Positions 3,901-24,548 are shown, counted from the first letter of the stretch. The stretch is DNA of 32,000 nt from Pseudomonas aeruginosa (GCF_001457615.1 NZ_LN831024.1:5040001-5072000); one strand, 5' to 3'. Notes: a model not told the origin generated them from the sequence alone. Numbers and translations: made by a program.

Positions 3901-4807
3901 AGAACAGGTTCATGCCCAGGTCGTTGATTTCCACCGGCTTGCGCGCGGCATACGACGCCTTCAACTGCGGCGCCAGCAGCCGTGCCACCAGCCGTTGCGC
4001 CTTGCCGTCGCGCCAGTCGAACCAGAAGTCGCCGCCGGCCTTGGCCCGGACGATCGTCCATTCCTGGGTCAGACCGGCCGGCAACCATTGTGCCCAGTCG
4101 CTCTGCGGCAGGCTGAGATAGAACCTGGCGCTGCTGCGCGGCCAGTCCTCACTGTCGATCCGCCCTTCGGCGTGCAGCGCCAGGGGTTGGCCATCCGGCA
4201 GTTGCAGGCGGGCATCGAGACTCTGCCCACCAACCGATGAACTGCGCAGGGTCGCGCCGACCGCGCTGAGCGACAACGCTGCGCTTCCCCGCGGCGCCAC
4301 CTCCAGTTGACTGTCCAGCAGCGAGATGCGTTGGGTCTGCAGCAGGAATTGCAGGAGTTTCCGGGGATCGCTGGGCTTGTCACTGTGCGGCAGGCCATCC
4401 AGGCTCCACTGGCCATCCTCGCCTTCGCGCAGGGTCAGCTTGAGTCCCTCCAGCTCCAGGCTGCCGATCCGCACCTGGCGCGCCAGCAGGCTGCCGAGCA
4501 GGTCCGGCGCCAGCCGCACCCGCGCCAGGCGCAGACTCTGTTCGCCGTCGCCGACCTGAATGTCGCGCGCTACCACCAGAGGCTCGAAGCCGCGCCAGGA
4601 GCCCGTCAGCTCGGCAATCCGCACCGGTATGCCGAGTTGCTTGCCAGCTTCGTCCTCCAGCTGCTGGCGGTATTCGGCCACCAGCGGCACCAGTTGCCGG
4701 CCAAGGCTGACGTACAGCGCCAGCAGCACCAGTACCAGGGCGCACAGACCCAGGACGATCCGTAGCAGTCGCGTTCCGAGGCTTCCCACATCCGCCATTT
4801 CAGCCAT
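968..4807 (-). CDS. yhdP: YhdP-like AsmA-family envelope protein (inner-membrane anchored, periplasm-spanning; implicated in phospholipid transport to the outer membrane)
   Basis: 1279-aa ORF with an N-terminal TM helix (LLRIVLGLCALVLVLLALYVSL), a long beta-rich body and a C-terminal ...SVQYSVKGPWQDPKISF tail typical of YhdP/DUF3971 proteins. It lies immediately downstream of rng, as in enterobacteria. An alternative ATG exists at 4798. Confidence 0.85.
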   Translation of the reverse strand: MAEMADVGSLGTRLLRIVLGLCALVLVLLALYVSLGRQLVPLVAEYRQQLEDEAGKQLGIPVRIAELTGSWRGFEPLVVARDIQVGDGEQSLRLARVRLAPDLLGSLLARQVRIGSLELEGLKLTLREGEDGQWSLDGLPHSDKPSDPRKLLQFLLQTQRISLLDSQLEVAPRGSAALSLSAVGATLRSSSVGGQSLDARLQLPDGQPLALHAEGRIDSEDWPRSSARFYLSLPQSDWAQWLPAGLTQEWTIVRAKAGGDFWFDWRDGKAQRLVARLLAPQLKASYAARKPVEINDLGMNLFFDREAQGWKVRVGDLAANFGEQRWGEVELLLRRDQQNNEPHWKLQADRVDLTPLVPAIEALAPLPDAAAEWVAGLKPKGILHNLNADFWPQREVPERVSYATNLEKVGISAFHEVPAVENVSGTLTGTLAGGQLDASAQDFMLHLAKVFPEPWRYREARTRMFWSLDDRAFTLGSHLMRVEGEEGSLAGDMLIRLMRDPGAEDYMDLQVGLSDGDARFTAKYLPTQLPGMNKSLANWLKTAIRSGHVEQGYFQWQGSLNRGAAAEAHVMNLYFKVRDGELAYQPGWPALSKTVGEVFVEDSGVRVLASSGNLLNSRVSDVKVDIPLGRPGQTPHLYVDGAVDSNLKDGIKLLQEAPIPTRKIFAGWEGDGPLQGHLKLDIPLDHDEAGKTGVVVDFSTVGATLKMPSPKLDMSEVKGDFRFDLAKGLSAPAVQARVLGNEVRGRIVAEGRGDARTRLLLNGQVAVKSLSDWLGAGQRPLPVSGRLPFQLNLLLDGKDSQLQIDSDLKGAVVDLPAPFGKTAAQARPTQWRMTLDGAERRYWARYDGLASLAYAAPADKPLNGRGALRLGGDPALLPSAQGLRVRGRLAELDWDAWQATLKRYGNGDQAASSAAGLLRGADLRIDSFKGFGQELKNLTVDLARQERAWQLVLVSDLASGRLVLPDARGAPIVVDLDRLNLPKSTLPDENKVEDSDPLAAVDPRSLPAVDVKIGQVALGGQPLGAWSLKVRPGSNGVAFNDLDLDLRGLHVNGSLRWDGSPGNTRSTYQGRIEGKNLADVLKAWNFAPSATSERFRMDINGQWPGSPAYMALKRFSGSMDASLRKGQFVEVEGSAQALRVFGLLNFNAINRRLRLDFSDILGKGLSYDRVKGVLSATDGVYVTREPLKLEGPSSNLELNGTLDLAHDRIDAKLLVTLPLTNNLTLAALIVGGPAVGGAVFVVDKLLGDRVSRFASVQYSVKGPWQDPKISFDKPFEKPR

Positions 4808-6997: not shown

Positions 6998-7492
6998 CTA
7001 CCTCACGTTGAGACGCAGGCGGACGAACTGCAGCAGGGCGTACACCCAGGGCCAGAGCAGCGCGCTGACCAGGGCCGGAAGCAGGAAGGTCAGGGTCGGC
7101 GGGCGATTGCCGGTCAGGGCGTTGAGCCAGAGCTGGAGCAGTTGCGCCAGGCCGTAGACCACCACCAGCACCAGGCACTGCTGCCAGGCCGGGAACATGC
7201 GCAGGCGCTGGTGCAGGGACAGCACGAGGAAGGTGATCAGGCCGAGGATCAGCGCGTTCTGCCCGAGCAGGTTGCCGTAGAGCACGTCCTGGGCCAGGCC
7301 GAGCAGCCAGGCGGTGACCATCCCGACGCGCTCGGGCAGCAGCAACACCCAGTAGGTCAGCAGCATCGCCAGCCACAGCGGGCGGCCGATCTCGGTGAAG
7401 GTAGGCATCGGCGCTACGGCCAGCACCAGCCCGACCAGCAGGCTCAGCCAGATCACCCAGACATTGTTCGAACCCTGGGTCGCGCGAGCCAT
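6998..7492 (-). CDS. mreD: Rod shape-determining protein MreD
   Basis: 164-aa polytopic hydrophobic protein. Its ATG overlaps the mreC stop by 1 nt (TGATG at 7494-7490). mreB-mreC-mreD order. Confidence 0.9.
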   Translation of the reverse strand: MARATQGSNNVWVIWLSLLVGLVLAVAPMPTFTEIGRPLWLAMLLTYWVLLLPERVGMVTAWLLGLAQDVLYGNLLGQNALILGLITFLVLSLHQRLRMFPAWQQCLVLVVVYGLAQLLQLWLNALTGNRPPTLTFLLPALVSALLWPWVYALLQFVRLRLNVR

Positions 7493-8532
7493 CAGCGGCG
7501 CCCCCCGTTGGCCGCCGGAGCGGCAGGCTGCGTGGGAGCTGGCGCGGGCGCGGCGGCGGGCTGCTGCGCAGCGCCCTGGGCTGCCGGGGTGGCCGGCGAC
7601 GGCGCGGCGGCCGGTTGCGCGGCAGGCTGGGGCGCCTGGGCGCCGGCGGCGGCTTTCTTGTCCGCCTCTTCCTGGGCCTCGGCGGCGTCGTTGGCGCGCT
7701 GTTCCGGGGTGCGACTGTCGCTGAACACCAGCAGCACGTAGCGGCTACGGTTCATCTTCGCGGTCGGCACCGCGCGCACCACGGCGAACGGCTGGCCGGA
7801 ATCGTGGATCACTTCCTTGACCGTGGCCACCGGATAGCCGGCGGGGAAGCGTTGCCCCAGGCCGGAGCTGACCAGTAGGTCGCCTTCCTTGATGTCGGCG
7901 GTGTCGGCGACGTAGCGCAATTCCAGACGCTCGGGATTGCCGGTACCGACGGCGATGGCGCGCAGGCCGTTGCGATTGACCTGCACCGGGATACTGTGGG
8001 TGGTGTCGGTGAGCAGCAGGACCCGCGCGGTATAGGGCATCACCTCGACCACCTGGCCCATCAGGCCGCTGGCATCGAGCACCGGCTGGCCGACGAAGAC
8101 GCCGTCGTTCTCGCCCTTGTCGATCATGATGCGTTGGGTGAAGGGGTTCGGATCGACGCCGATCAGCTCGCTGACCAGTACCTTGTCGTCGACCAGCGCG
8201 GCGGAATTGAGCAGCTCGCGCAGGCGCACGTTCTGCTCGGTGAGCGCGGCGAGTTTCTGCACCCGGCGCTGCATCAGCAGGGACTCGGCCTTGAGGCGTT
8301 CGTTCTCGGCGATCAGCTCGCTACGGCTGCTGAACTGGTCGCGCACGCCTTCCCAGGCGCGCACCGGCATTTCCGCCAGGCCGTAGAAAGGCGTGAGCAC
8401 CATCCCCAGCTTGCTACGGACGGGCTCCAGATAGTCGAACCGGGCGTCCACCACCATCAGGCTGACCGACAGCACGGCCAGCACCAACAGGCGAACGCCC
8501 AGCGACGGGCCTTTGGAGAATAGCGGTTTGAT
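7492..8532 (-). CDS. mreC: Rod shape-determining protein MreC (start proposed at a non-canonical ATC at 8532; conservative TTG start at 8487)
   Basis: The frame is open from an in-frame TAG (8544-8542). The codons from 8532 encode (I)KPLFSKGPSLGVRLLVLAVL, which parallels the E. coli MreC N-terminus MKPIFSRGPSLQIRLILAVL. AGGAG (8543-8539) lies 6 nt before ATC 8532. No ATG or GTG occurs upstream of TTG 8487. The body has a coiled coil plus beta domains, and the C-terminal 72 aa form an Ala/Pro/Gln-rich tail. Confidence 0.85.
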   Translation of the reverse strand: MKPLFSKGPSLGVRLLVLAVLSVSLMVVDARFDYLEPVRSKLGMVLTPFYGLAEMPVRAWEGVRDQFSSRSELIAENERLKAESLLMQRRVQKLAALTEQNVRLRELLNSAALVDDKVLVSELIGVDPNPFTQRIMIDKGENDGVFVGQPVLDASGLMGQVVEVMPYTARVLLLTDTTHSIPVQVNRNGLRAIAVGTGNPERLELRYVADTADIKEGDLLVSSGLGQRFPAGYPVATVKEVIHDSGQPFAVVRAVPTAKMNRSRYVLLVFSDSRTPEQRANDAAEAQEEADKKAAAGAQAPQPAAQPAAAPSPATPAAQGAAQQPAAAPAPAPTQPAAPAANGGRR

Positions 8533-8563
8533 GATCCGCTCCTAGGCGACGATGCTCGCCACC

Positions 8564-9613
<1,050 letters not shown>

Positions 9614-9632
9614 CTAGGCGAAGCGTGGGTGA

Positions 9633-9660
9633 AAAATACGCGGGTAAAAAAGTGCGGCAA
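9633..9660 (-). promoter_or_regulatory. Candidate sigma-70 promoter for mreB
   Basis: On the minus strand: TTGCCG (9660-9655), a 16-nt spacer, then TATTTT (9638-9633). It sits in the AT-richer 239-bp divergent mreB/gatC spacer. Pattern match only. Confidence 0.25.
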
Positions 9661-9681
9661 ACTCTAACAACGACGGGGATT

Positions 9682-9709
9682 TTGGGCAAGGCGGGCAATA
9701 TGCTAAATT
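9682..9709 (+). promoter_or_regulatory. Candidate sigma-70 promoter for gatCAB
   Basis: TTGGGC (9682-9687), a 16-nt spacer, then TAAATT (9704-9709). This would give a leader of about 125 nt before the gatC ATG. Pattern match only. Confidence 0.25.
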
Positions 9710-9840
9710 GCAGGCTTTTCCCGGCCCCACAAGGCCCGTCCAGGCGGAATTAGACCGCCGACCGCGGCATCCGTTCCCTGCCTTATATAACGCATGGCGC
9801 CCCGCCGCCCTTCCAAGGCCGCTTTTGCTGGAGACTCCCG

Positions 9841-10131
9841 ATGGCGCTTGAACGCTCCGACGTGGAAAAAATCGCCCATCTCGCCCGCCTGGGCCTGAGC
9901 GAGGCCGATCTTCCGCGCACCACCGAGACCCTGAACAACATCCTCGGCCTGATCGACCAGATGCAGGCGGTCGACACCAGCGGCGTCGAACCGCTCGCCC
10001 ATCCGCTGGAAGCCACCCAGCGCCTGCGCCCGGACGCGGTCACCGAGACCGATCACCGCGACGCCTACCAGACCATCGCCCCCGCCGTGGAAGAAGGTCT
10101 GTACCTGGTTCCGAAAGTCATCGAGTCATAA
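9841..10131 (+). CDS. gatC: Glu/Asp-tRNA amidotransferase subunit C
   Basis: 96 aa. Starts [24 protein letters not shown].... GGAG lies 7 nt upstream. Followed by gatA after 12 nt. Confidence 0.95.
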
Positions 10132-10143
10132 GGACGCGGACAC

Positions 10144-11598
10144 ATGCTGCATCAATTGACCCTCGCCGAGATCGCCCGCGCCCTCGCCGACAAGCAATTT
10201 TCCGCCGAAGAGCTGACCCGCACCCTGCTCGGTCGCATCCGGCAGCTGGATCCCCAGCTCAACAGTTTCATCAGCATCACCGACGACCTGGCCATCGCCC
10301 AGGCCAAGGCAGCCGACGAACGGCGCGCCAACGGCGAGAACGGCGCCCTGCTCGGCGCGCCGATCGCCCACAAGGACCTGTTCTGCACCCAGGGCGTACG
10401 CACCAGCTGCGGTTCGAAGATGCTCGACAACTTCGTCTCGCCCTACGACGCCACCGTGGTCGAGAAGCTCACCGCCGCCGGCGCCGTTACCCTCGGCAAG
10501 CTGAACATGGATGAATTCGCCATGGGCTCGTCGAACCAGTCCAGCCACTACGGCGCGGTGAAGAACCCCTGGAGCCTCGACCGCGTGCCGGGCGGCTCCT
10601 CCGGCGGTTCCGCCGCGGCAGTCGCCGCGCGCCTGCTGCCGGCCGCCACCGGCACCGATACCGGCGGCTCGATCCGCCAACCGGCGGCGCTGACCAACCT
10701 CACCGGGATCAAGCCAACCTACGGCCGGGTTTCCCGCTGGGGCATGATCGCCTACGCCTCCAGCCTCGACCAGGGCGGCCCGCTGGCGCGCACCGCCGAG
10801 GACTGCGCGCTGATGCTGGGGGTGATGGCCGGATTCGATCCGAAGGACTCGACCAGCGTCGAACAGCCGGTGGACGACTACCTGGCCGCCCTGCAGAAGC
10901 CGCTGAGCGGCCTGCGCATCGGCCTGCCGCGGGAATACTTCGGCGCCGGCCTCGACAGCCGCATCGCCGACGCGGTGCTGGCCGTGGTCGAGGAGCTGAA
11001 GACGCTCGGCGCCACGGTGAAGGACATTTCCCTGCCGAACATGCAGCACGCCATCCCGGCCTACTACGTAATCGCGCCGGCCGAGGCGTCCTCCAACCTG
11101 TCGCGCTTCGACGGCGTGCGCTATGGCTATCGTTGCGACGCCCCGCAGAACCTGGAAGACCTGTACAAGCGCTCGCGCGCGGAAGGCTTCGGCAGCGAAG
11201 TGAAGAACCGCATCATGGTCGGCACCTACGCACTCTCGGCCGGCTACTACGATGCCTATTACCTGCAGGCTCAGAAGATTCGCCGGCTGATCAAGAACGA
11301 CTTCGTCAGCGCCTTTGCCGAAGTGGACGTGATCCTCGGCCCGACCACGCCGAACCCGGCCTGGAAGATCGGCGAGAAAAACGACGACCCGGTTTCCCAG
11401 TACCTGGAAGACATCTACACCATCACCGCCAACCTCGCCGGCCTGCCGGGGCTGTCCATGCCCGCCGGCTTCGTCGACGGCCTGCCGGTGGGTGTCCAGT
11501 TGCTCGCGCCCTACTTCCAGGAAGGCCGCCTGCTCAACGTCGCGCACCAGTACCAGCAGGTCAGCGACTGGCACACCCGCACCCCGGCCGGCTTCTAA
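10144..11598 (+). CDS. gatA: Glu/Asp-tRNA amidotransferase subunit A
   Basis: 484 aa. Contains the amidase signature ...[13 protein letters not shown].... AAGGA lies upstream of the ATG. Confidence 0.97.
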
Positions 11599-11704: not shown

Positions 11705-13150
11705 ATGCAATGGGAAACCGTGATCGGGCTGGAAATCCACGCACAGCTCGCCACCCAATCGAAGATCTTCTCCGGCAGCTCGACCGCCTTCGGCGCCGCG
11801 CCGAATACCCAAGCCAGCCTGGTCGACCTGGCCATGCCGGGCACCCTGCCGGTGCTCAACGAGGAGGCCGTACGCATGGCCTGCCTGTTCGGCCTGGCGA
11901 TCGACGCACGGATCGACCGGCAGAACGTGTTCGCCCGCAAGAACTACTTCTACCCCGACCTGCCGAAGGGCTACCAGACCAGCCAGATGGACCATCCCAT
12001 CGTCGGCAAGGGCCATCTCGACATCACCCTGGAAGACGGCACCAGCAAGCGCATCGGCATCACCCGCGCGCACCTGGAGGAGGACGCCGGCAAGAGCCTG
12101 CACGAAGACTTCCAGGGCATGAGCGGCATCGACCTGAACCGCGCCGGCACGCCGTTGCTGGAGATCGTTTCCGAGCCGGACATCCGCAGCGCCAAGGAAG
12201 CCGTGGCCTACGTCAAGGCGATCCACGCCCTGGTGCGCTACCTGGGCATCTGCGACGGCAACATGGCCGAGGGCTCGCTGCGCTGCGACTGCAACGTCTC
12301 GGTACGACCGAAGGGCCAGGCCGAATTCGGCACCCGCGCCGAGATCAAGAACGTCAACTCCTTCCGCTTCATCGAGAAGGCGATCAACCATGAGATCCAG
12401 CGCCAGATCGAGCTGATCGAGGACGGCGGCAAGGTAGTCCAGGAAACCCGCCTGTACGACCCGAACAAGGACGAGACCCGCTCCATGCGCGGCAAGGAAG
12501 AAGCCAACGACTACCGTTACTTCCCCTGTCCCGACCTGCTGCCGGTGGTCATCGAGCCCGAGTACCTGGCGAAGCTGCGCGAGCAACTGCCGGAACTGCC
12601 GGTGCAGAAGCGCGAACGCTTCGAGAGCCAGTACGGCCTGTCCGCCTACGATGCCAGCGTGCTGTCCGCCAGCCGCGAGATGGCCGACTACTTCGAGAAG
12701 GTCCAGGGCATCTGCGGCGACGCCAAGCTGGCGGCCAACTGGGTGATGGTCGAGCTGGGCAGCCTGCTCAACAAGGACGGCCTGGAGATCGAGCAGTCTC
12801 CGGTGTCCGCCGAGCAACTGGGCGGCATGATCCTGCGCATCAAGGACAACACCATCTCCGGCAAGATCGCCAAGATGGTCTTCGAAGCCATGGCCAACGG
12901 CGAGGGTTCCGCCGACCAGATCATCGAGGCCAAGGGCCTGAAGCAGGTCACCGACAGTGGCGCCATCGAGAAGATGCTCGACGAGGTGCTGGCGGCCAAC
13001 GTCGAGCAGGTCGAGCAGTACCGCGCCGCCGACGAGGCCAAGCGCGGCAAGATGTTCGGCTTCTTCGTCGGCCAGGCGATGAAGGCCTCGAAAGGCAAGG
13101 CCAACCCGCAGCAGGTGAACGAGTTGCTGAAGAAAAAGCTCGAAGCGTGA
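11705..13150 (+). CDS. gatB: Glu/Asp-tRNA amidotransferase subunit B
   Basis: The ATG at 11705 opens [25 protein letters not shown]... (481 aa). The 71 upstream codons of the track ORF (from 11492) overlap the gatA 3' end and are Arg/Ser/Pro-rich junk. Has a GatB/YqeY C-terminal domain. Confidence 0.96.
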
Positions 13151-13159
13151 GTCAAAGCC

Positions 13160-13190
13160 AGACGCCGGGTTCGCCCGGCGTCTTCTTGTC
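13160..13190 (+). terminator. Rho-independent terminator after gatB
   Basis: AGACGCCGGG-TTCG-CCCGGCGTCT forms a perfect 10-bp stem with a tetraloop, followed by TCTTGTC. It begins 10 nt after the gatB stop. Confidence 0.75.
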
Positions 13191-13209
13191 CGCCAGGAGC
13201 CTGTTGTCC

Positions 13210-13587
13210 ATGCCCACCCCATCCGCCGCCGCGCGCCTCGCCCTCGCCGTCCTGCCCCTGTTCCTCGCCGGCTGCTCCAGCCTCGCCGGCAGCGGTTCCG
13301 CGGATACCGGCGAAGCCTCCTACTATGGCAGCCGCCACGCAGGCCTGCGTACCGCCAGCGGCGAGCGCTACAACCCCAACGCAATGACCGCTGCCCACCG
13401 CACGTTGCCGTTCGGCACCCGCGTGCGGGTAACCAACCTCGACAACCGCCGCAGCGTGGTGGTGCGGATCAACGATCGCGGGCCGTTCCGCCGCGGACGG
13501 ATCATCGATGTATCGCGCAAGGCCGCCGAAGGCCTGGGTATGATCCGCAGCGGCGTGGCGCCGGTTCAGATAGAGTCGCTGGATTGA
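13210..13587 (+). CDS. Small RlpA-like (double-psi beta-barrel) lipoprotein
   Basis: The ATG at 13210 gives MPTPSAAARLALAVLPLFLAGC with a lipobox (LAGC). This is followed by the RlpA/DPBB core ASYYGSRHAGLRTASGERYNPNAMTAAHRTLPFGTRVRVTNLDNRRSVVVRINDRGPF. The GTG at 13147 is rejected because it would place the terminator hairpin inside the coding sequence, ahead of the signal peptide. Confidence 0.8.
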   Translation: MPTPSAAARLALAVLPLFLAGCSSLAGSGSADTGEASYYGSRHAGLRTASGERYNPNAMTAAHRTLPFGTRVRVTNLDNRRSVVVRINDRGPFRRGRIIDVSRKAAEGLGMIRSGVAPVQIESLD

Positions 13588-13618: not shown

Positions 13619-14005
13619 ATGAGCGAACAAGGCAAGACCGGCCTGGAGATCCGACGTGAAGTCATGGGCGACGCCTTCGTCGAGCGCGCCATGGGCAACG
13701 CCACCGCCTTCACCCAGCCATTGCAGGACTTCGTCAACGAGCATGCCTGGGGCTCGGTCTGGGCCCGCGAGGCGCTGCCGCGCAAGACCCGCAGCCTGAT
13801 TACCCTGGCCGCCCTGACCGCCCTGAAATGCCCGCAGGAACTCAAGGGGCACGTGCGCGGTGCGCTGAACAACGGCTGCACGGTGGAGGAAATCCGCGAG
13901 GCACTGCTGCACTGCGCGGTCTATGCCGGGGTGCCGGCGGCGATCGATGCGTTCCGTGCGGCGCAGGAAGCGATCGATACCTGGCAGGGCGAACAGCCCG
14001 CCTGA
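13619..14005 (+). CDS. Carboxymuconolactone decarboxylase (CMD/PcaC-like, AhpD-fold) family protein
   Basis: 128 aa. Contains ...AWGSVWAREALPRKTRSLITLAALTAL...EEIREALLHCAVYAGVPAAIDAF, the typical gamma-CMD family core. AGGAA lies upstream. Confidence 0.8.
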   Translation: MSEQGKTGLEIRREVMGDAFVERAMGNATAFTQPLQDFVNEHAWGSVWAREALPRKTRSLITLAALTALKCPQELKGHVRGALNNGCTVEEIREALLHCAVYAGVPAAIDAFRAAQEAIDTWQGEQPA

Positions 14006-14078: not shown

Positions 14079-14107
14079 GGCGAATAACGCCAGGGGCGTT
14101 ATCCGCC
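14079..14107. repeat. REP-like imperfect palindrome between convergent genes (possible bidirectional terminator or mRNA stabiliser)
   Basis: GGCGAATAACGCC-AGG-GGCGTTATCCGCC forms a 13-bp stem with 1 mismatch and a 3-nt loop. There is no U-tract on either strand. The flank ...GCGTTATCCGCCCTA is reminiscent of enterobacterial REP ends. Confidence 0.45.
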
Positions 14108-14129: not shown

Positions 14130-14921
14130 CTACGGATAACTGAAGCGCTTCACCAGCGTCAGCTCGCCAGGCTTGCGCATCGGCACCAGGAAGGTTTCCT
14201 GTTTCTCGTTCGGCGTGCCCTCTTCGGTGACCAGGGTGATGCGCGCCGTGGTCAGGTCCTGGGCGGCCTGTTCGGCGCCATCCTCGCTGCTGCCGTAGCC
14301 ACCGCCGAAGTAGTTGACGTAGACCAGGTAGGGCCCCTTCTGCGGCGTCGGCGTGGCGATGATTTCCGGGCCGTAGCCGGTGGTGACGTCGACATCCAGG
14401 GTCGCGCCGTTGGCCAGCGAACGATTGCCATACCAGACATGGTCGCCGTCCGGGGTCACCAGGTGCAGGTCGAGGTCGGTGTTGTCGCTGTCCCAGGACA
14501 GCAGCACGCGCAGCTTGGCCGGCACTTCCCCGCCGCCGCCACCGTGATAGAACTGGACCCGTCGCGACTGCCCGGCGGCGTTGCGCACCTCGACGCTGTT
14601 GCTGCCGGACGGGAAGGCGAACGGGCGGTCGAAGCTGCCATCGGCGTCCACCTTCAGTGGCATGCTCACACCGTTCACCACCAGCGTCGCCGGGCGGTCC
14701 TTGGGCTGGCTCTCGATCGCGCCGCGAATGCGCGCGGTGGTCGCCTGGTCGGCGGCGACGTTGACCGAGGACGCCGGGTAGTTCACCACCTGCCGGTAAT
14801 TGGCGGCGGAACCGTCGCCGGCACGCCAGCCGGAGACCGGCGTATCCAGTTTCACGGGGTTGTCCGCCCAGGCGACGAGGGGAAGGCAACTGAGCAGGGC
14901 GGCAAGGGACATTCGGTTCAT
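14130..14921 (-). CDS. magF: MagF, DUF2135/YfaP-family exported protein (paralogue of MagA)
   Basis: The ATG at 14921 lies 4 nt after the magE stop and gives the signal peptide MNRMSLAALLSCLPLVAWA|D. Blocks shared with MagA: RVQFY, LDLHLVTPDG, YLVYVNYFG, ETFLVPMR..GELTLVKRFSY. It is the last gene of the operon. Confidence 0.85.
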   Translation of the reverse strand: MNRMSLAALLSCLPLVAWADNPVKLDTPVSGWRAGDGSAANYRQVVNYPASSVNVAADQATTARIRGAIESQPKDRPATLVVNGVSMPLKVDADGSFDRPFAFPSGSNSVEVRNAAGQSRRVQFYHGGGGGEVPAKLRVLLSWDSDNTDLDLHLVTPDGDHVWYGNRSLANGATLDVDVTTGYGPEIIATPTPQKGPYLVYVNYFGGGYGSSEDGAEQAAQDLTTARITLVTEEGTPNEKQETFLVPMRKPGELTLVKRFSYP

Positions 14922-14925
14922 GGAG

Positions 14926-16575
14926 TCATTCCAGTAGCAGGCGCCGGGCCAGGCTTTCGACATAGTTTTCGTCCTGGCCGCTGGGATGGGCGCGGAAGGC
15001 CAGGTGCAGGTATTCGTGGGTGAGGTCCAAGCGTTCCTGTAGGGAATACAGGCCGCGGACGAAGATGCGTTCGCGCTCGCGATCGACATAGGGCCGCCCG
15101 GAAGCCAGGCGGCACACGGAAAAACTCGGAATCTCCTCGTAGCCGGGCTCTCGGTCGAGACGCTCGCGCCACTGCCGGCGCTGCTTGCGCAGCCAGTCTT
15201 CGGCAGCCGGCAACGGCTGGCAGGCGGCCACCGGGTTGTCCCAGCGGCTCAGGCTGCTGCGCGGGAAAGCCTGGGCGAGGATGCTGTCGTAGCCCAGTCC
15301 CTGCCCGGCTTGCTCCACCGCGTGCTTCCAGGACAGGCGCGCCGGACCAGGCTGGTCGGAGTGATAGTTGACGGTCGCCCCGGCCAGCACCAGGTCGGCG
15401 CTCCAGGCAGCGATCCGCCGCGTCGGCGCGCTGGCCGGGCGCGGCGCCACGCGCTGGCGCTGGCTGCTGTCATCGATGGCCAGGCATTCGCCGCGCGGCG
15501 CGGCGTTTTGCAATAGATAGGTGCGAATGGTCACCGCCAGCGCGCGAGCGGCTTCCTTCGGCTGCGCCGAGGCTTCGCGCTCCAGCACCCGCGCCACGTA
15601 CTCTTCGCGCGAAACCCGCGCGACCAGGCGCGGCACGCCATCCACCCGTTGCAGGAAGAGGTCGCCGGCGCTGGCGATGTCCAGTCGATTGCCGTTGGCG
15701 AAGAGCACTTGCTGCGGACCATGCAGCAGGCCTTCGGCGGCCGGGTGGCCGGAGGGATCGCTGACCGAGCGCAGCGGATAGCGGCTGAACAGGTTCACTT
15801 CCACGCAACGGCCCGGATCGGCCGGCCACGGACTCGGCAGGAAGCGCCCGAGCACCTCGGCGTAGCGGTCCAGAATCATCTTGCTGGTTCCCGGGCCGCC
15901 GAGCCAGAGCGGCGTTCCATCGACCAGCCAGCCAGCGAAACCGCCCTGGCGCGCCTGCGGGTCATGGTCGTCGAGCCAGCTCCAGGTCTTCACCCGCAGG
16001 CGGCCGCCAAGGCTGGCCACGGCATGGCCGTCGCCGGCCTGCAACGCCACGTCGAGCAGTACCCGCCGCGCCTCGCCCTGGGCCGGCAGTTGCTGCAACT
16101 GCTCCAGAAGCTCCTTAACCGGCACCCGCGTCTGCGGTTGCAGCCGTTCCAGATCGAGCAACCAGGCCGGTGCCTGGCGCGCCTGCCAGTAGCCGCGCCA
16201 GGCCTCCGGCCGCAAGGCGAGGCGCTGCGGCTCGAAATACAGCCCGCAGGAGCGCACCAGGGCGCGGTCACGACCGATCGTCTGGCCATTCTCGCAGCAG
16301 TAGACCTCCTCGCGGCTGCGCCCCTGGCAGGTATAGGGCGGCTCGGCCTGGCCGGTGTCGCTCAGCCAGGCGAAGACGAACAGTTTCCACAGGCTGCCCA
16401 GCGGAGCCTGCAAATCGGCCGGCAACGGCCGGCGCTCGAGTACCCGCTGGCGATCCAGGCTCACCAGTTCGTAGCCCTGGGTCGTGCGCCAGGCCAGCTG
16501 GACCGGCGCCTCCGCTGCGCGAAGCAGCAACGGCACGGCGCACAGCAGGACCAGCCAGGCGCGCAACGCAATCAC
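14926..16575 (-). CDS. magE: MagE, DUF2300/YfaQ-family exported protein with a SpoIID-like motif
   Basis: The GTG start at 16575 overlaps the magD stop (GTGA, 16572-16575). Signal peptide [23 protein letters not shown]. 549 aa. Contains the internal motif [34 protein letters not shown] (15612-15502). Confidence 0.85.
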
Positions 16576-19500
16576 TCGACCTTGACCTTGGCCAGCGCCG
16601 GCTTGGCTTCCAGGGCCTGCTGTTCCGGCGCGTAGAGACGCAGGTAGCGGGCCGGTGGCAGGTTGAAGCTGCCTTTCTGGGAGAAACGCACCAGGTGACG
16701 GAAACGCTGCTCGCCACTCAGGCTGTCCACCGGCACCCCGTAGAACAACTCGCCCGGTTCGTTGCGCGCGCGCTCCAGGGTGGTCGCTTCGTCGCCGGCC
16801 AGGCCGCTGATCTTGATGCCCCAGGTGGTGCGCTCGACATCCGCGCCGGGCGGCAGCGGCAGTTCCAGCATGCCGTAGCGTAGAGCGGTGTCTTCCGGAA
16901 CGTTCAGGGTCACTTCGTCGAGATACAGTTCGTCGCTGGAAAGCGGCTTGTCGCCAACCTCCTCGACCTTGAACTCGAACGCCCCCTCACCGGGCACCAG
17001 GCGCAGCAGACGACGGCTGATCTGCACCGGCAGTTGCCCGCTCGGCGCCTGGGCGCTGCGGTAGCTGAGCGCAACCGGCAACGGCCGGGCCGGCGCCTCG
17101 TCCAGGTCGACCCAGCTCGGAATGCCGCGGCCGCGCCATTGCCAGTAGGTTTCGCCGCTGGCGCCGCGCTGCGCCTGCCAGTCCTTCGGCGGCTGCGGCA
17201 GCTTGCCCTGCGGCGCCTGGGCCAACGCGCCCTGCAGCCAGGTCAGGGCCAGGGCGCGTTCCAGGGTCGATTGCGCCGGCGCCAGGCGTTGCAGCAGAGC
17301 GCTGACCTGCTGGCCATCCACGGCCGAGCGAGAGGCCAGCAAGGCATCGGTGAACGGCAAGCCGGCCTCACGCAGGCGCTGCGTCGCCGTCTCGGCCTGG
17401 GCGGCCAGCGGAGCGGGCACCGCGACCCGCAGTTGCCGTGCCAGGTCCACCGCCAGCACTCGCGCCGCGGCCAGGCCGACGGCCGAGTCCGGGTCGCCCA
17501 GCACCAGGCCGTCGTCGGCCTCCAGCGGCTCCGCGCGCGCCTGCCCTTCGCCGGCGTTGGCCAGGTCGTTGAGCAGGCCGCCGAGCAGGGTGTTCACCGG
17601 CAACTGCATGTCGCGGGCGAAAGCCAGGATCAGCGCACGCTGCAGCAGCGGGGTCTGCGTCGCCTGCTTGGCGTAGGGCTCGAGGATGCGCTGCCAGTGT
17701 TCGGCCGGCAGTTGGATCTCCAGTGCGCGGCTGGCGTACCAATCGGCGTAGTAGGCGTAGGCGGTGAGGAAAGCGTCGCCATCGACGTCGCCGCCCCACC
17801 AGGCGAACCAGGCGTCCGGGCCGGCCATCTGCACCAGGCGCAGGCGACTGTTCTGCATGATCAGGCGCAGGCGGTCGCGAATCCGCGGCTCGCCGCCGGC
17901 CAGCGCCGGATAGGCGATGCTCAGCGGCAGCAGTTGGCTGGCGGTCTGCTCGACGCCGCCGTAGGGATATTCCAGCAGGTCATCGAGATTGCCCAGGTAG
18001 GCCGCGGCCGGGCCATCGGCCAGGCGCAGGCGTACGTCGCGGGCGTCCGCCGGCAGTTGCAGCGGGTTGCTCGCCGCCGCCAGGCTGAGGTTCTGCGCCT
18101 GCTCCACCTGCCAGCCGTCGGCCAGCAGGTTGAAGCGCACCGCCAGGCGGTCGCGGACCTGCCCGTCCTGGCGCAGCTCGGCGCTCCAGTCGCCATCGCT
18201 GAGCGGCTGTTGCGCCAGCGGTATGTAGTTGACTCCCTTGGCCAGCTCCAGGGGCTGGCTGCGCTGGCTGCCAGGCGGCCCGCTGAGCAGCTCGGCCTTG
18301 ACCGGCTGTTCGCCCTGGTTGAAGACGAACAGGCCGAGGTCGGGCTGGTCACCCTGGCGGAAGCGGGTCGGCCCGCTCCATTTCAGGTACAGCGGCTTCT
18401 CCGAGCGAAGGAACTGCTTCTTCTGGCCGACCTGGCCGTTGTCGTCGATGGCCCGTGCGGTGATCCGCCAGCGGGTCAGCGAGTCGGGCATGCGGAAGCT
18501 GAAGCTGGCCTTGCCCTGGGCGTCGGTGACCAGCTCCGGCTGCCAGGCGGCGGTGTCGACATCCTCGCGGCGCGGCCGCTCCAGTACCTTGACGCCGCGC
18601 TCGCTGCGGTTCGCCCGTCCGGGTGCGCTGGTGCTGCCGGGCAACGCCACGTCGTAGCTGATGAAGGCCAGGCTGGCGCTGGTGCGCACGTTGTTGCGCC
18701 GCGGATGGTAGAAGAACTGGTCGATGCCGGGGGCGATCTCCGCCTGCAGGGCATAGACCATCTCATCCACCACGCTGACGGTCAGGTGGCTGGAAACCGG
18801 TTTGCCGGCGAAGCGCGTGGCCAGGGTCACGGTCACCGTCTCGCCCGGTTCGTAGCGCTCCTTGTCGGTGGCGATGTCGATCTCTACCTGGGGCATGCCG
18901 ACCTTGATCCCGGCGTTCTGGAAGCTGTAGTCGCCGCCCTTGGTGTAGAGCACCGAGAAGGTCAGGTTCGGTGAGAACTCCTCGCGCACCGGGATCCACA
19001 CGCGGTACTGGGTCGGATTGAGTTTTTCCAGGCGCAGCCAGTCGGCGCCCTTGGACAGCAGGGCGGTGGCCTCGACCTTGTCGCGCTCCAGGGACAACAG
19101 CGCATCCTCCACCGGCTCGGGGAAGGTGATCAGTGCGGAGGCTTCCTCGCCGGTGCGGTACTCGGGCTTGTCGAACACCACCTCGACGGTGCCCGGCACC
19201 GACTTCACGCCCTCGCCGCTCACCGAGTGGCCGGTGGCGCCAAGGAGCTGGCCCTTGTCGTCGCGCAGCTCCACGGAATAGGTACCGGGGCGCTCGAAGG
19301 TCAGCGCGAAGCGGCCGTCGGCGACCGGACCGCTGTCGGTGGCGCGGTCCTCCAGGCGGATCCACTGGTAGCTGCTCGGCTTGAGCGGGGTCGGCTGTTC
19401 GCTGGCATAGCTGAACTCGACCTTCTCGCCGGCGGCGCTGAAGCGCTGCGGCGCGCTCAGGCGGTAGCGCGCGGCGCCGCGCTCGATGAGGATCTCCTTG

Positions 19501-21122
19501 CTGGTCTTGACCCGGTAGGCGGCGCCGTCGCTGGCGAAGATGGTCAGCATGTAGCGACTGGGTTTCTCGGCCGGCGGCAATTCGATGGCGGCGCGGCCCT
19601 CGCCGTCGGTGGTCAGTTCGGTGCTGCTCAGTTCCACCGGGAACTGGCCGAGATACTGCAGTTCGTTGTCCACCATCGACAACTGCTGGGCGCGCAGGCT
19701 CAGTTGCAGGCGCGCGTTGGCCACCGGCTTGCCGTCCGGATAGAGCAGGACGATCTCGCCCTTCACCGGCTCGGCGGTCTTGAAGTCCGGCTTGGCCAGG
19801 TCGAGGGCGACTTCGAAGTGCGGCTTGATGTATTCGGCGACGCGGAAGGCGCTGCTGTAGGTCTGCCCGCGGTAGTCGAAGCGCAACTCGTAGCCGCCGG
19901 CGACGGCGTTCTCCGGCAGTTGGAAGCGGCCATTGGCGCCGCTCTTCGCGTCGAAGCGGAGGTCCAGGCTTTGCAATACCGTGCCGCTGGCGTCGATCAC
20001 GCTCAGGCGCACCGGCGCGCTGGCGGCGGCCTGGGATTGCCGGGCGTCCTTGAACTCGCGGCCGACCATCTTCAACGAGACCCAGTCGCCCGGCCGGTAC
20101 AGCGGGCGGTCGGTGAAGGCGTAGATCTTGGTGTCGTAGATCTCGCTGTCGTAATAGAAGTTCTCGGAGACGAAGACCCCGCCCTCGCGGTCCTCGCCGA
20201 TCACGTAGGAGCGCTCCGGACTGGCGTGCTTGAGCCGCAGCAGGCCGTCGGCGTCGGTATTGCCGCTGCTCATCACGCCCAGGCCGTCGGTCCACAGCAC
20301 CTTGGTGTCGGGCACCGGGGTGCCTTCGTGCTTGCGTGCGGTCCAGACCAGCAGCTCGTCGCCGGCGACCTTGCTCACCGCCACGCTGTTGGAGACGAAC
20401 ACCACGGTGGTGGCGCGGTACTTGCCGACAAGCGCCTCGACCAGGTACAGGCCCGGCTTCAGCTTGCCCAGCGGGATGTAGACATTGCCCGGCACGACGT
20501 TGATGAACTCGCTGGAGGAACCGGCCAGCTTTACGTCCTGCGGCGGCTCGATGGGCTTGGCGTCCCACAGCGGATAGCGGAACTGGCTGACCAGCGGCAG
20601 GCCGGGAATCGGCGCGTATTGCGGCTGCGCGTCGTAGGGCGTCGGCGCGGTCATGGCGTTGCCCATCTTCAGCTCGGGCACCGCCTCGGTGACCTGTTGC
20701 CGCGACTCGTAGGAGAAGGCGCGCTGCATCACCCGGCGCGACTTGCGATACCAGTTGTCCCAGAGATAGGCCAGGGTGTTCGACAGGCCTTCGCCCTTGA
20801 ACTGTCCCTCGGCCAGGACCCGGTGCAGGTTCTTCTGCCGCTTGAGGAACTCCAGCGGCTGTTCGATCCGGTACAGGCGCACGTCGACCCCGCCATAGGG
20901 CTCCATGCGGTAGCGCCGGTAGTCGCGGCCGGGCGCTTCGAGACGGACCCGCGCTTCCTCGTCGGTGGCGAAGCTGCTGTCGGCGAGCAGGAAGAAGGAT
21001 TCGCCGGCCATCGGCGTGTAGCCGCTCGGTTCCACCGTGTCTTCCGCCTGGACGGCGGCGAACGGCAGCAGGACCAGGGCGGCGACCGCCAGGCTACGGC
21101 TGAAACGGCGCAGGTTGCTCAT
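16572..21122 (-). CDS. magD: MagD, alpha-2-macroglobulin-like protein (YfaS type, no thioester cysteine)
   Basis: The ATG at 21122 gives the signal peptide [26 protein letters not shown]|ED and a 1516-aa product. It has a repetitive beta-rich (MG-domain-like) architecture. Where thioester A2Ms have the CxEQ thioester motif, this protein has [16 protein letters not shown] (17969-17946). The track ORF start at 21230 adds 36 non-signal residues and is rejected. Confidence 0.92.
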
Positions 21123-21148
21123 TGCTGTGGTCTTCACTGGGACGCGAT

Positions 21149-21799
21149 TCATTGAGAGAGGAAAGCCAGCCGATAGATGCCGATAAAGTTGGGATTGGAT
21201 TCGTCGGGGATCCATCGGGTGTCCTTCCATGTCATGAGTTGTTGCAGGCTGACCGAGCGCATGCCGTTATCGGTCGGGGTGCTGCTGCCGGTGTGATAGG
21301 CGATGGAGCGGCCCATCCAGATCATCAGGTGCTGGTCGTCGCCCTGGTCGTAGAACATCAGGTCGCCGGGGCGCGCCTGGTTGAGGTCGCGACCGACCAG
21401 CCGGCTGTTGAACTGCACCAGCTTGATCGCATTCACATAGGGCCCGACCTGGCCGCCACCCTGCTGCCAGTTCTGCGCCAGGCGCCGTTGCTCGGGACTG
21501 AGCGCCAGCTCCGGGGGCAGGTAGCGGTTGGACAGGCCGTTGGCGCGCAGCCACTTGCCATCGTGGACTTTCAGCGCCTCGTTGGCGGCGAAGCGCACCA
21601 GGCCGGCGCAGTCCTGCTGGTGCCAGCGCGGACTCGGCCCTTGGCGCAACTGTTCCTGGGCGATGCGCACGAACCAGGCGCGGAATACCTGCGATTGCTG
21701 CGGGTCGAGCGTTACCGCGGGCTCGCCGCGGGCAACGCCGCTGGCCAGCAGGAGCAGCGCCAGGCCGAAGGCAGTCAGGCGTCTCACAGCGACCGCCAT
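21149..21799 (-). CDS. magC: MagC, DUF1175/YfaT-family NlpC/P60-like exported protein
   Basis: Signal peptide [23 protein letters not shown]. Has an NlpC/P60-type Cys motif [10 protein letters not shown] (Cys codon 21610-21608) and a His motif [10 protein letters not shown] (21331-21329). The start is uncertain: ATG 21799 overlaps the magB end by 16 nt, and GTG 21820 and ATG 21814 are alternatives. Confidence 0.85.
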
Positions 21800-23553
21800 T
21801 CCAGCGGCAGCCATTGCCACGGTGCGTTGGCCTGGCTTCCGGCAGGCAGCCCGAGGGCGTAGCTGCCCTTGCCGGCGAGGGTTTTCAGGCGCGGCATCAG
21901 GTAGGTGTCGGCGGCATTGCGGAATACCGGCTCCATGTCCTGCGGCAGGCTGTCGAGGGTTTCCCGTTGCAGCAGTTCGGAGAGCGGCTGCGGCGCCAGG
22001 TAGGCCGGTACCAGCGCATCCTTCGGCAACACCTCGGCGAGCGGCGGATAGCGTTTGTCGAGGGTGTCCAGGGCCTTGCCGAGCAACTGGTCGTCGAGGG
22101 AGAACAGCAGGGTCTGGCCATGGCGCGCCATGCCGATGCGGAAGAACGCGCGGCCGCTGATGCTCTCCGGGTTGTCCGCCTGGCTGGCCGGATAGGCGCC
22201 GAAGTTCGAGCTGACCTGGCGGGTCCAGCGGCGGGTCTGGCCATCCACCCGGTCTTCCACCGGGAAGCTGCCACCCTCGACCTTGGCTTCCTTCGCGCCG
22301 ATCACGCGACCGAACAGCTTGCCCAGCTCGTCGTCGAGTTCGGCACTGGCCGGCGCGCTCAACTGGCCCACCAGCAGCGGCGAATGCAGCCGCGAACTGG
22401 CGTACCAGCAGAGACCGGCAGCGCCGCTGAGATGCTCGGAGAAGGCCTGGGCCATCTTCTGCTCGGCCCCCAGACGCTCCAGCATCACCCCGTACAGGCC
22501 AGGGGTGACCGGCAGCGCCACGCAGGCGCTGGCGCCCATCGGCATGGCCTGCCAGACCGGGGCGAAGTCCAGCGGCGGCTGGCGTTCCACCTCGTTCAGC
22601 GCCAGGTAGCTGCTCCAGCCCTGCTCGCCCTTCTCGAAGCGCACCCCGGCGAAGCTCGGGATGAAGCGCTGGTAGCCCATGGCCAGGACGCTGGCATTGA
22701 GGGTGATGCGCTGGCGCAGCTCGCCGCGGCCCGGCAGGCCGAAGCGCTCGGGGAACAGTTCGTCGCCGTCGAGCAGTGCCTCCAGGTCTTCGCTGGCCGG
22801 AGCGTTCAGCGGGCTGTCGTCGCTTTCGCCACCATCGTCGAAGAGCATCCGTGGGTTCGACAGCAACAACAGCCGGTCGCCCTTGGACAGGAACAGCATC
22901 GCCTTGTCGTTGCCGTAGCGCAGGCGATAGACCGAGGTTCCCGCCAACTCGCCGACCTTGCGCAACTGCTGGTCGTCGGCGGCGATATGGGCCAGCGGCT
23001 CGAGCACCCGCGCCAGGCCGCCGCGCTTGAGCACCACCACGAAGTCGCGCAGGCGGCCGTCGGCGCCGCGCCAGAGGGCGACCTGGGCCGGTTGGTCGAG
23101 CAGTTCCTCGACCAGGCTGTCCTTCAGGGTCAGGTCGTGCTCGTAGATGATCCGCCGCAACGTACCGGTCAGGCCGAGGCGGTCGCCATTGTTCTCGTAA
23201 TAGAAGACGAAGTCCTCGGTCAGGGTATCGCGCAGCAACGGCACCTCGAGGATTTCCTTCGGCAGGCGGCTCAGCGACACGCTCTCGATCAGCGCGTCGG
23301 GCTTGCGCAGGTCACGGTAGGCACGTGGCGCGTCGGCGTCCGCGGGTGCCTGGGCGCCGATCGGCTGGCCGAGGTCCTCTTCGGCCGGGCGCCCTCCGCC
23401 GAGCCGCTCCAGCCAGCCCATCTGCCAGGCCAGCACACCGCCGGCGGCCAGCGCGGCGACGATCCCCAGCACCGGCCACAGGGCGCTTCGGGTGCGCGCA
23501 GCGGCGGGCGCAGGGGTTCCGTTGGCAGGGCTGGGGGTGTTGTTCTCGCTCAT
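21784..23553 (-). CDS. magB: MagB, DUF2138/YfaA-family protein with a single N-terminal TM anchor
   Basis: 589 aa. Starts [23 protein letters not shown], followed by a TM helix [20 protein letters not shown] and then a large periplasmic domain. GGGA (23567-23564) lies upstream of the ATG. Confidence 0.85.
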
Positions 23554-23591
23554 GGTTCGCTAATCCCGTGTCATCCGTACGAGGGGATGCT

Positions 23592-24401
23592 TCAGTAGGT
23601 AAAGGTCTTGACCAGCACCAGGTCACCGATGGTGCGCAGGGGCACGACGAAGGTCTCGTGCTTCTCGTCGACGCTGTTTTCGTTGAACACCAGGTTGACC
23701 TGCGCGGTGATCACGTCCTGTACGTTGCTGCCGGCCTGGAAGTTGTAGCCCTGGTTGTTGAGGTTGCCCCAGTAGTTCACGTAGATCAGGTAGGTGCCGT
23801 GCAGCGGCGCGCCCATGGTGAACATCTCCGGGCCGGGCCCGTCGACGCCGTCCGGATCGAGGCCGCCGCTGTTGCTCAGGCGCGGATGCGCCCAGTAGGC
23901 GTGCTGGCCATCGGGGGTGACGATATGCAGGTCGAGCTCGGCCTTCGGATCGTCCCAACCCAGCACCACGCGCACGCGCGGCGGCAGTTGGGAGCGATTG
24001 GCCTCGTAGAACTGTACGCGCTTGAGGATCTTGCCGTCGGCGCTGCCGACCTGGACGCCGTTGGAGCCGTGGCCGAACGCATAGGGGCGGACGAAGCGCC
24101 CGGCGCCGTCGGTATAGAGAGGGAGAGGATTGCCGTTGACCACCAGGCGCTGGGCGCGCTCGGTGCCGACCAGTTCGCGCAGGTGTCCTTCGATCAGGCT
24201 GCGGCCGCGCTGGCCGCCGCGATCGATGGGCGGAGTCGGATAGGCGACACGCGGGGCATCGGGCTGTTCGAGCAGGCCGGAATAGCGCCAGCCTGCCGTC
24301 GGACCATCCAGGTCCACCGAAGGCTCGGCTAGTGCAGGCAGCCCGAAGGCCAGTCCGAACAGCACCGACAGGCAGCCGGCACTCGAACCGAAGATACGCA
24401 T
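23592..24401 (-). CDS. magA: MagA, DUF2135/YfaP-family exported protein (paralogue of MagF), first gene of the operon
   Basis: The ATG at 24401 is preceded by CCAGGGATTGATC, with GGGA 6 nt upstream. Signal peptide MRIFGSSAGCLSVLFGLAFGLPALA|EP. Motifs RVQFY, LDLHIVTPDG, YLIYVNYWG and ETFVVPLR..GDLVLVKTFTY. The track start TTG 24407 adds 2 codons. Confidence 0.85.
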   Translation of the reverse strand: MRIFGSSAGCLSVLFGLAFGLPALAEPSVDLDGPTAGWRYSGLLEQPDAPRVAYPTPPIDRGGQRGRSLIEGHLRELVGTERAQRLVVNGNPLPLYTDGAGRFVRPYAFGHGSNGVQVGSADGKILKRVQFYEANRSQLPPRVRVVLGWDDPKAELDLHIVTPDGQHAYWAHPRLSNSGGLDPDGVDGPGPEMFTMGAPLHGTYLIYVNYWGNLNNQGYNFQAGSNVQDVITAQVNLVFNENSVDEKHETFVVPLRTIGDLVLVKTFTY

Positions 24402-24470
24402 GATCAATCCCTGGTCGTGCGATTCATGAAAGTTGCATCTTAACGATTGCGCTGTCCGCTGGATATCCCC
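24402..24470 (-). promoter_or_regulatory. magA 5' leader with GGA motifs (candidate RsmA/CsrA binding sites)
   Basis: GGA motifs on the minus strand at 24411-24408 (CCAGGGAUUG, overlapping the SD), 24457-24455 (AGCGGACAG) and 24468-24466 (within GGGGAUAUCC; GGATATCC is an 8-bp palindrome). I could not identify a convincing sigma-70 promoter in 24402-24510. Confidence 0.35.
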
Positions 24471-24510
24471 GGCGACCGGCGGAATGTGCGAAATCCACCG
24501 CGATTCGACG

Positions 24511-24548
24511 GAAAGCGGAAAGTATAGGGGGCGCCATGCGGCGCCCCC
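24511..24548 (-). terminator. Rho-independent terminator of roxSR
   Basis: GGGGGCGCC-ATGC-GGCGCCCCC forms a perfect 9-bp GC stem (24527-24548), starting 16 nt after the roxR stop. On the minus strand it is followed by UAUACUUUCCGCUUUC. Confidence 0.7.

Follow-up and report, generated by a model that had tools for sequence, protein, structure and literature searches.

Results

Genes of the locus and their identity

The DNA analysed here, a stretch of 32,000 nucleotides (nt) from Pseudomonas aeruginosa (GCF_001457615.1, NZ_LN831024.1:5040001-5072000) that is referred to as the window, has a G+C content of about 67 % and contains six open reading frames (ORFs) on the minus strand between 24401 and 14130 (Table 1). 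The six are magABCDEF (PA4492-PA4487), very probably the operon of a periplasmic envelope-defence complex assembled around an alpha-2-macroglobulin (A2M) without a thioester. None of the frames has an internal stop codon. The same gene ends and spacings had been given in an earlier description of this DNA made from the sequence alone (the sequence-only reading), and all six ORFs and the lengths of their junctions were reproduced exactly.

In a sequence look-up each of the six products (6/6) matched a P. aeruginosa database protein exactly. MagA is Q9HVS9_PSEAE, MagC is identical to the protein of PDB entry 7BK8 ('MagC'), and the exact match of MagD carries the NCBI name 'alpha-2-macroglobulin MagD'. 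This MagD allele was found on 9 contigs; other alleles of its 90 % cluster are far commoner (652 and 347 contigs). Since all products had exact matches and Pfam E-values went down to 1e-290, the gene set is not a chance result. No substantive difference was seen from magABCDEF of strain PAO1, including the N-terminal signals, which are as in the published table. The sequence-only reading had identified the locus as P. aeruginosa magABCDEF and as the counterpart of the E. coli yfa cluster, and the exact matches and the shared gene order bear this out. The locus is already named and experimentally studied and is not a discovery.

Table 1 Features of the mag locus in the window (positions counted from the first nucleotide of the window)
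Feature	Position	Strand	Description
Upstream hairpin	24527-24548	-	9-bp all-GC stem after roxR, U-rich tail to about 24511
magA leader	24402-24475	-	two GGA motifs, candidate RsmA sites
magA	24401-23592	-	exported DUF2135 (YfaP-family) protein, 269 aa, MagF paralogue
magB	23553-21784	-	DUF2138, 589 aa, single N-terminal transmembrane helix at residues 26-48
magC	21787-21149	-	DUF1175, NlpC/P60-like, 212 aa, GTG start
magC, alternative start	21799 (ATG)	-	216 aa; form likewise present in databases
magD	21122-16572	-	alpha-2-macroglobulin homologue, 1516 aa, signal peptide, no lipobox, no thioester
Degenerate thioester site of MagD	17946-17966	-	PYGGVEQ, residues 1053-1059; Gly at the CxEQ Cys position
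magE	16575-14926	-	DUF2300 (YfaQ-family), 549 aa, signal peptide, GTG start
MagE module 1	15832-16503	-	residues about 25-248, beta-lactamase/PBP-transpeptidase-like fold
MagE module 2	15241-15828	-	residues about 250-445, SpoIID-like, lytic-transglycosylase-like domain
MagE module 3	14929-15240	-	residues 446-549, small zincin-like domain; HExxH codons 15004-15018
magF	14921-14130	-	exported DUF2135 (YfaP-family) protein, 263 aa
Downstream hairpin	14079-14107		13-bp stem with one G-U pair, between convergent magF and CMD-family gene
aa, amino acids; PBP, penicillin-binding protein

The genes are closely spaced. magA and magB are separated by 38 nt, magC and magD by 26 nt, and magE and magF by 4 nt, while magD and magE share a 4-nt overlap (GTGA). 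When magC is read from ATG 21799, the start chosen in the sequence-only reading, it overlaps magB by 16 nt. This start is legitimate, but the deposited MagC of 7BK8 begins at GTG 21787, from where magC makes a 4-nt GTGA overlap with the magB stop codon. The GTGA device is then common to the magB/magC and magD/magE junctions, and the yfaA/yfaT overlap of E. coli is likewise 4 nt.

Every Pfam domain predicted from the sequence was found when the hidden Markov model searches were run. MagA and MagF both match DUF2135 (52 and 71 bits) and are paralogues with 41 % identity. MagB matches DUF2138 (964 bits) and NCBIfam PRK11410 (777 bits), and MagC matches DUF1175 (207 bits); its NLPC_P60 score of 19.4 bits is below the cut-off of 23. 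The N-termini of MagA, MagC, MagD, MagE and MagF are signal-peptide-like and MagB has a hydrophobic helix at residues 26-48, in agreement with the signal peptides and the MagB helix tabulated in the study that named the operon (mBio 2013).

Conservation of the block

A genome scan was made with an alignment of the MagE family as the query against one genome per species (185,579 species genomes). It gave 487 stretches encoding a relative that carries the conserved MagE motif, hence at most 487 of the 185,579 species genomes. Counts out of 80 refer to the best 80 of these 487 stretches, all of which are from the Pseudomonas group. All 80 loci have A-B-C-D-E-F on one strand. The gatB/DPBB flank seen in the window occurs in about 28 of them and roxR in about 10, and the P. 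fluorescens-group loci examined have neither. As few of the 80 loci share flanks, the mag block is seen to stay intact amid changing surroundings.

More distant relatives of MagE (27-35 % identity), from metagenomes, were found by contig look-up. The distant loci that span the full block (L082, L083 and L088) have the order B-C-D-E-F, which is the E. coli order. In one of these loci magC had been missed by the gene caller and was recovered by tblastn, and the shorter distant contigs hold the D-E-F end. Locus L082 has its two DUF2135 genes in tandem after magE (9079-10870) and not at the two ends of the block; a single DUF2135 gene is present in E. coli and in the other distant loci. Because B-C-D-E-F occurs in the distant loci and in E. 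coli, these five genes form the conserved core, and it is in the copy number and position of the DUF2135 genes that the system varies. Co-occurrence of the six families, which the sequence-only reading had put forward as a check on the operon, was thus found in full in the Pseudomonas group and for B-C-D-E-F beyond it.

The yfaA-yfaT-yfaS-yfaQ-yfaP cluster of E. coli has the order and strand of magB-C-D-E-F, and the products share 45, 75, 53, 52 and 53 % identity, respectively, with their mag counterparts. MagC/YfaT is therefore the most conserved product of the operon. The 4-nt gap between yfaQ and yfaP is as in mag. The cluster differs in having five genes, with gyrA upstream instead of a magA-like DUF2135 gene, and in E. 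coli K-12 yfaS is a pseudogene in which the thioester site reads GGVIN.

MagD and its thioester site

MagD has Pfam matches over the cut-off to MG2 (89.1 bits), A2M (78.1 bits) and A2M_BRD (58.7 bits), and also to bMG10. It contains no cysteine at all, and the lack of both the lipobox cysteine and the CxEQ thioester cysteine is the published 'type II' character. The type I A2Ms (ECAM/YfhM of E. coli and Sa-A2M of Salmonella) share with MagD an architecture of MG domains and a bait region, the location in the periplasm and the principle of the protease trap. They differ from it as lipoproteins which have a CLEQ thioester and are paired with PBP1c (pbpC), whereas MagD has no pbpC neighbour and its membrane attachment is given by MagB. 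Among the larger ORFs scanned in the window no PBP1c was found; the neighbours of the block are roxR and, at the other end, a CMD-family gene. Assignment of MagD to type I was rejected, as it has neither a cysteine nor pbpC as a neighbour.

Comparison of mag-type operons indicated that many orthologues of MagD are different in this respect. G-C-V-E-Q is kept in the A2M of 16 of the 80 Pseudomonas-group loci, for instance in Aquipseudomonas alcaligenes, P. indica and P. turukhanskensis, and G-C-(V/T/I)-E-Q is present in all five independent distant metagenomic lineages (5/5). The motifs of these orthologues include PYGCVEQ, PYGCTEQ, PNGCVEQ and PFGCIEQ, and the set with a thioester motif consists of loci L017, L024-L026, L028-L035, L037, L042, L051, L077 and L082-L089. 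The aligned A2M segments have a single cysteine in 27 loci, and G-C-x-E-Q, where present, supplies one. Since so many orthologues retain CxEQ, the description of type II as thioester-less is true of P. aeruginosa MagD and not of the family as a whole. The simplest reading would be that the thioester of MagD/YfaS is ancestral and has been lost repeatedly.

The three modules of MagE

MagE matches Pfam DUF2300 with 295 bits and SpoIID with 27.8-30 bits (cut-off 23). Based on a confident AlphaFold model (predicted local distance difference test, pLDDT, 94.2; predicted template modelling score, pTM, 0.86), MagE is predicted to consist of three modules, and in all three of them residues at positions typical of a catalytic site are invariant. 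Conservation was assessed in an alignment of 55 diverse representatives of the family, which are 27-58 % identical to MagE and from which the model was also made, and separately in 89 loci.

Foldseek matches of module 1 in the PDB are class A and D beta-lactamases and the transpeptidase domain of PBP3 (E 1.5e-5 to 4e-4, TM-score 0.45-0.59). S61-x-x-K64, S109 and K196-T197 are invariant in 55/55 representatives; in the loci, S61, K64, S109 and K196 are kept in 89/89 and T197 in 88/89. In the model, S61 opens helix 60-74 and K196-T197 lies on strand 193-201. The second motif is S109-C-G and not SxN, and the third is KT(F/W/Y) and not KTG; because of these deviations the catalytic competence of module 1 is uncertain.

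The MagE family profile matches the SpoIID structure 4RWR (E = 5e-4), and in the alignment the invariant E334 of module 2 corresponds to E101 of C. difficile SpoIID, taken to be the catalytic glutamate. Y326, R329, R333, D369, Q374 and R375 are also invariant in this module. By the family match and the aligned glutamate, module 2 is a SpoIID/LytB-like domain with a putative enzymatic activity. Modules 1 and 2 are already reported, as E. coli YfaQ has been described as transpeptidase-like and SpoIID-like (mSystems 2025).

For module 3, no mention was found in the literature searched of an HExxH module in MagE or YfaQ. H520-E521-x-x-H524 is invariant both in the alignment (55/55) and in the loci (89/89). 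In the model the motif is on helix 512-526 behind three strands, and module 3 alone has a pLDDT of 95.6. Its best Foldseek matches in the PDB are nearly all HExxH metallopeptidases, i.e. selecase, IrrE/PprI, an M48-like peptidase, abylysin, BepA, the protease domain of BlaR1 (E 0.6-1.1, a poor value) and Wss1. Sub-threshold Pfam matches to Peptidase_M78 and to SprT-like were seen in 5 and 4, respectively, of 29 family members. Used as a single sequence against the PDB, module 3 gave chance matches to angiogenin only. Candidates for the third zinc ligand are H530 (48/55), E536 (52/55) and E540, a position which is always acidic. A metzincin-like HExxHxxxxxH site with H530 as the third ligand is not favoured, as this residue is T or Y in some orthologues, including that of E. 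coli.

The Pfam model DUF2300 matches MagE strongly at residues about 85-207 and 413-531 (about 15955-16323 and 14983-15339, minus strand), and E. coli YfaQ is annotated as 'tandem DUF2300'. A tandem repeat was rejected for MagE, since hhalign of the two sub-alignments gave a probability of 0.13 % and the predicted topologies differ. It would seem that the DUF2300 model is a composite and does not describe a genuine repeat.

In pairing an SxxK/KT module, which is class-D-beta-lactamase-like or PBP-like, with an HExxH module, MagE is reminiscent of BlaR1/MecR1, in which a PBP-like sensor domain and an HExxH zinc protease are parts of a single protein. However, its domain order is different, it has the extra SpoIID-like module, and it does not have a membrane-embedded protease. 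We regard the comparison as an analogy only.

MagC

C60 of MagC (in DCAGLVRF) and H153 align with the catalytic cysteine and histidine of mycobacterial RipA/RipB, and H165 takes the third position of the triad in this alignment. MagC, of which the structure is solved, thus has the Cys-His-His triad of NlpC/P60 proteins by alignment. All of the loci compared (84/84) retain D59, C60 and H165, a count which covers these three residues. The cysteine and the third-position histidine are hence conserved although DUF1175 is classed as catalytically inactive. It is possible that the site of MagC may serve binding only, or that the proper substrate or condition has not yet been tried.

Boundaries, leader and neighbourhood

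Both flanking elements of the sequence-only reading, a hairpin on the roxR side and a 13-bp stem downstream, are present as hairpins. The upstream one folds with -27.3 kcal/mol (z = -2.85 when the RNA fold is compared with shuffles) and was also found in the terminator scan. With its tail it is a candidate terminator, which probably bounds the mag transcription unit on the upstream side. The downstream hairpin (-33.2 kcal/mol, z = -1.79) has no U tract beside it on either strand; it marks the downstream boundary of the block, and as a terminator it is only a candidate. Five terminator-like sites were found and 5.8 were expected by chance, the roxR hairpin alone being convincing. The promoter scan of the region, magA upstream included, gave 0 promoter-like sites and no sigma-70-like promoter. 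Inside the mag block, matches that resemble promoters or terminators are no commoner than expected by chance.

Of the two GGA motifs in the magA leader, that at 24468-24466 lies in the loop of a small hairpin (24456-24475), and that at 24410-24408 overlaps the Shine-Dalgarno region of magA in ACCAGGGAUUGAUCAUG (24402-24414). The leader as a whole does not fold better than shuffles (z = 0.85), and a structured leader was rejected on that value. A GGA no more than 20 nt away from the start of magA recurs in 75 of 81 Pseudomonas loci. Because Shine-Dalgarno sequences contain GGA anyway, this recurrence is indistinguishable from that of ordinary Shine-Dalgarno sequences. The two motifs fit the published control by RsmA as candidate sites: RetS/RsmA control of the operon acts via the magA leader, and RsmA binds the PA4492 (magA) leader directly (mBio 2013). 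The published primer for verification of the magA deletion appears, as judged by eye, to match the leader sequence (Sci Rep 2018).

The gene upstream of magA encodes a response regulator with a Fis-type helix-turn-helix, and a histidine kinase gene lies beyond it. On the other side, a CMD-family protein (13619-14005, plus strand), convergent with magF, is followed by a DPBB 'lytic transglycolase', an RlpA-like protein (13147-13587, plus strand). Further away are mreB (Pfam MreB_Mbl) with two flanking ORFs (6998-9601, minus strand) and a gene for a YhdP-family protein (968-4807, minus strand). The two ORFs which flank mreB are taken to be mreC and mreD, from the gene order in PAO1. This envelope and morphogenesis neighbourhood is probably incidental to the mag block, since only about one in three of the loci from Pseudomonas species has this flank. 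No known RNA family was found anywhere in the window with Rfam at gathering thresholds. A plasmid origin was rejected, as megablast of the block against PLSDB gave no match.

Discussion

The mag operon of P. aeruginosa has been studied both structurally and genetically, and the sequence-only reading of its A2M as a protease trap agrees with the published work (mBio 2013; Sci Rep 2018). A complex of MagA, MagB, MagD and MagF has been published (2013, 2018). MagA and MagF each bind MagD 1:1, MagB anchors the complex in the inner membrane and stabilises it, and deletion of magE results in disturbed processing of MagD, with aberrant forms of higher mass (Sci Rep 2018). According to the literature, cleavage in vivo shortens MagD from 165 to 100 kDa. 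MagC, an NlpC/P60-like protein of known structure (7BK8), binds peptidoglycan (FEBS Lett 2021, as cited in a 2023 classification paper). In a CRISPR interference screen the GacA-regulated mag operon was found to protect against VgrG3 and Tae1, type VI secretion system (T6SS) effectors which target peptidoglycan, and loss of magD or of the whole operon sensitised the cells to both (Nat Commun 2025). A T6SS protein, TssM1, had earlier been co-precipitated (mBio 2013). The sequence-only reading, which held the roles of the partners and of the complex to be unresolved, is partly outdated, with published findings on MagA, MagB and MagF, on MagC and on MagE/YfaQ. The mechanism of the protection was left explicitly open by the authors of the screen (Nat Commun 2025).

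Based on these data, we favour an envelope-defence complex in which one RsmA-repressed unit under Gac/Rsm control makes the six proteins, as published, and in which MagB, a single-pass protein, keeps the exported MagD at the inner membrane, also as published. The complex would reach from MagB in the inner membrane to MagC and MagE at the sacculus, and would intercept incoming hydrolases before the wall is damaged. MagE may be an enzymatic or sensory accessory, with the PBP-like module for the peptide stem and the SpoIID-like module for the glycan strand. Coupling of the complex to the sacculus had been proposed in the sequence-only reading, and it is supported by the binding of peptidoglycan by MagC and by the protection that mag gives against peptidoglycan-targeting effectors, yet this is already in print. 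The wording 'rather than a free inhibitor' is fair, because MagB keeps MagD attached to the inner membrane.

Since deletion of magE disturbs the processing of MagD, MagE is a reasonable candidate for the processing peptidase of MagD, and its HExxH module would be the best candidate for the activity behind this MagE-dependent maturation. A further-reaching version, to which we give little credence, is that MagE is an activating enzyme which reads the state of the sacculus and clips MagD from 165 to 100 kDa with its HExxH module, the MagD family being ancestrally a thioester trap. Clipping would then arm the macroglobulin, or shift its position, at sites of attack on the wall, with a logic like that of BlaR1, and MagD of P. 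aeruginosa and YfaS of E. coli would be derived, thioester-less states.

Several observations weigh against these proposals. The sequence-only reading had every product exported or membrane-anchored, and the N-terminal signals agree with the published table, but on fractionation MagE was found to be cytoplasmic, and proteomics did not detect MagC (mBio 2013). The six conserved cysteines of MagE and its signal peptide argue for a periplasmic protein, which runs against that fractionation. MagE also formed no stable complex with MagD (mBio 2013; Sci Rep 2018), and the 2023 classification paper describes DUF1175 as "inactive ... binding to peptidoglycan". The zincin assignment of module 3 has weak fold scores (best E = 0.03, probability 0.89, TM-score about 0.45), and its domain profile had no match among PDB sequences. 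It is unexplained how a protease trap could block VgrG3, which is a glycan hydrolase. Co-transcription over the five junctions rests on sequence and literature.

It has to be considered whether mag is mainly an anti-host factor, with MagD trapping proteases of the host, for instance neutrophil elastase, or antimicrobial peptides, when these break through the outer membrane in chronic infection, and with the other Mag proteins serving only to fold, anchor and stabilise MagD. Exposure to elastase changes the conformation of MagD, mag is expressed more strongly in the RetS/RsmA 'chronic infection' state, and magB, magD and magE transposon mutants are attenuated in rat lung and Drosophila models (mBio 2013). 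In addition, MagD with an engineered bait traps TEV (tobacco etch virus) protease non-covalently and stably in vitro once the bait region has been cut (Sci Rep 2018). However, the operon is intact in many soil and plant Pseudomonas species and in environmental metagenome lineages that have no vertebrate host, the clearest phenotype of its loss concerns bacterial effectors of the T6SS, and a pure chaperone role would not need two partners with conserved sites like those of peptidoglycan enzymes. We therefore consider a mainly anti-host function unlikely. A housekeeping module for peptidoglycan remodelling or cell shape, in which MagE and MagC act on the cell's own sacculus and MagD is a scaffold or regulator, seems less likely still. 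It would agree with the invariant PBP-like, SpoIID-like and HExxH residues of MagE and with the Cys-His-His positions of MagC and its 75 % identity to the E. coli protein. Deletion of yfaQ gives wider cells and a phenotype profile that correlates with those of mepK, mepS and nlpI mutants, in a study which drew no connection from YfaQ to the macroglobulin operon (mSystems 2025). On the other hand, an operon with a relative in so few species genomes, and with yfaS a pseudogene in K-12, is dispensable and patchy, regulation by RsmA/GacA beside the T6SS suggests conditional defence, and DUF1175 is classed as inactive. The 2021 work on MagC is said to have found no hydrolysis of peptidoglycan. Both the anti-host and the housekeeping function may be partly true.

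That the six genes are mere neighbours could be argued from the promoter scan, which found no sigma-70-like site even upstream of magA. This is effectively refuted by junctions which overlap or are 4-38 nt wide, by the same order and strand in 80/80 loci despite differing flanks, and by the literature, in which the products are purified together and lend each other stability, and in which RsmA at the magA leader sets the level of MagD.

With the envelope-defence complex as the preferred reading, the locus itself adds nothing new, being a named operon whose link to the sacculus is in print. Apparently new over the literature searched are the HExxH module of MagE and the orthologues of MagD that retain the thioester motif, and these are modest additions. 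The importance that remains is in how a thioester-less macroglobulin complex shields peptidoglycan from injected hydrolases. H520, E521 and H524 of MagE are a precise, mutable candidate for a catalytic site, which could explain the magE-dependent processing of MagD, and the thioester-bearing orthologues of MagD in identical operons provide a comparative system for the role of the thioester in the complex. The HExxH site and these orthologues together make the mechanistic question more testable.

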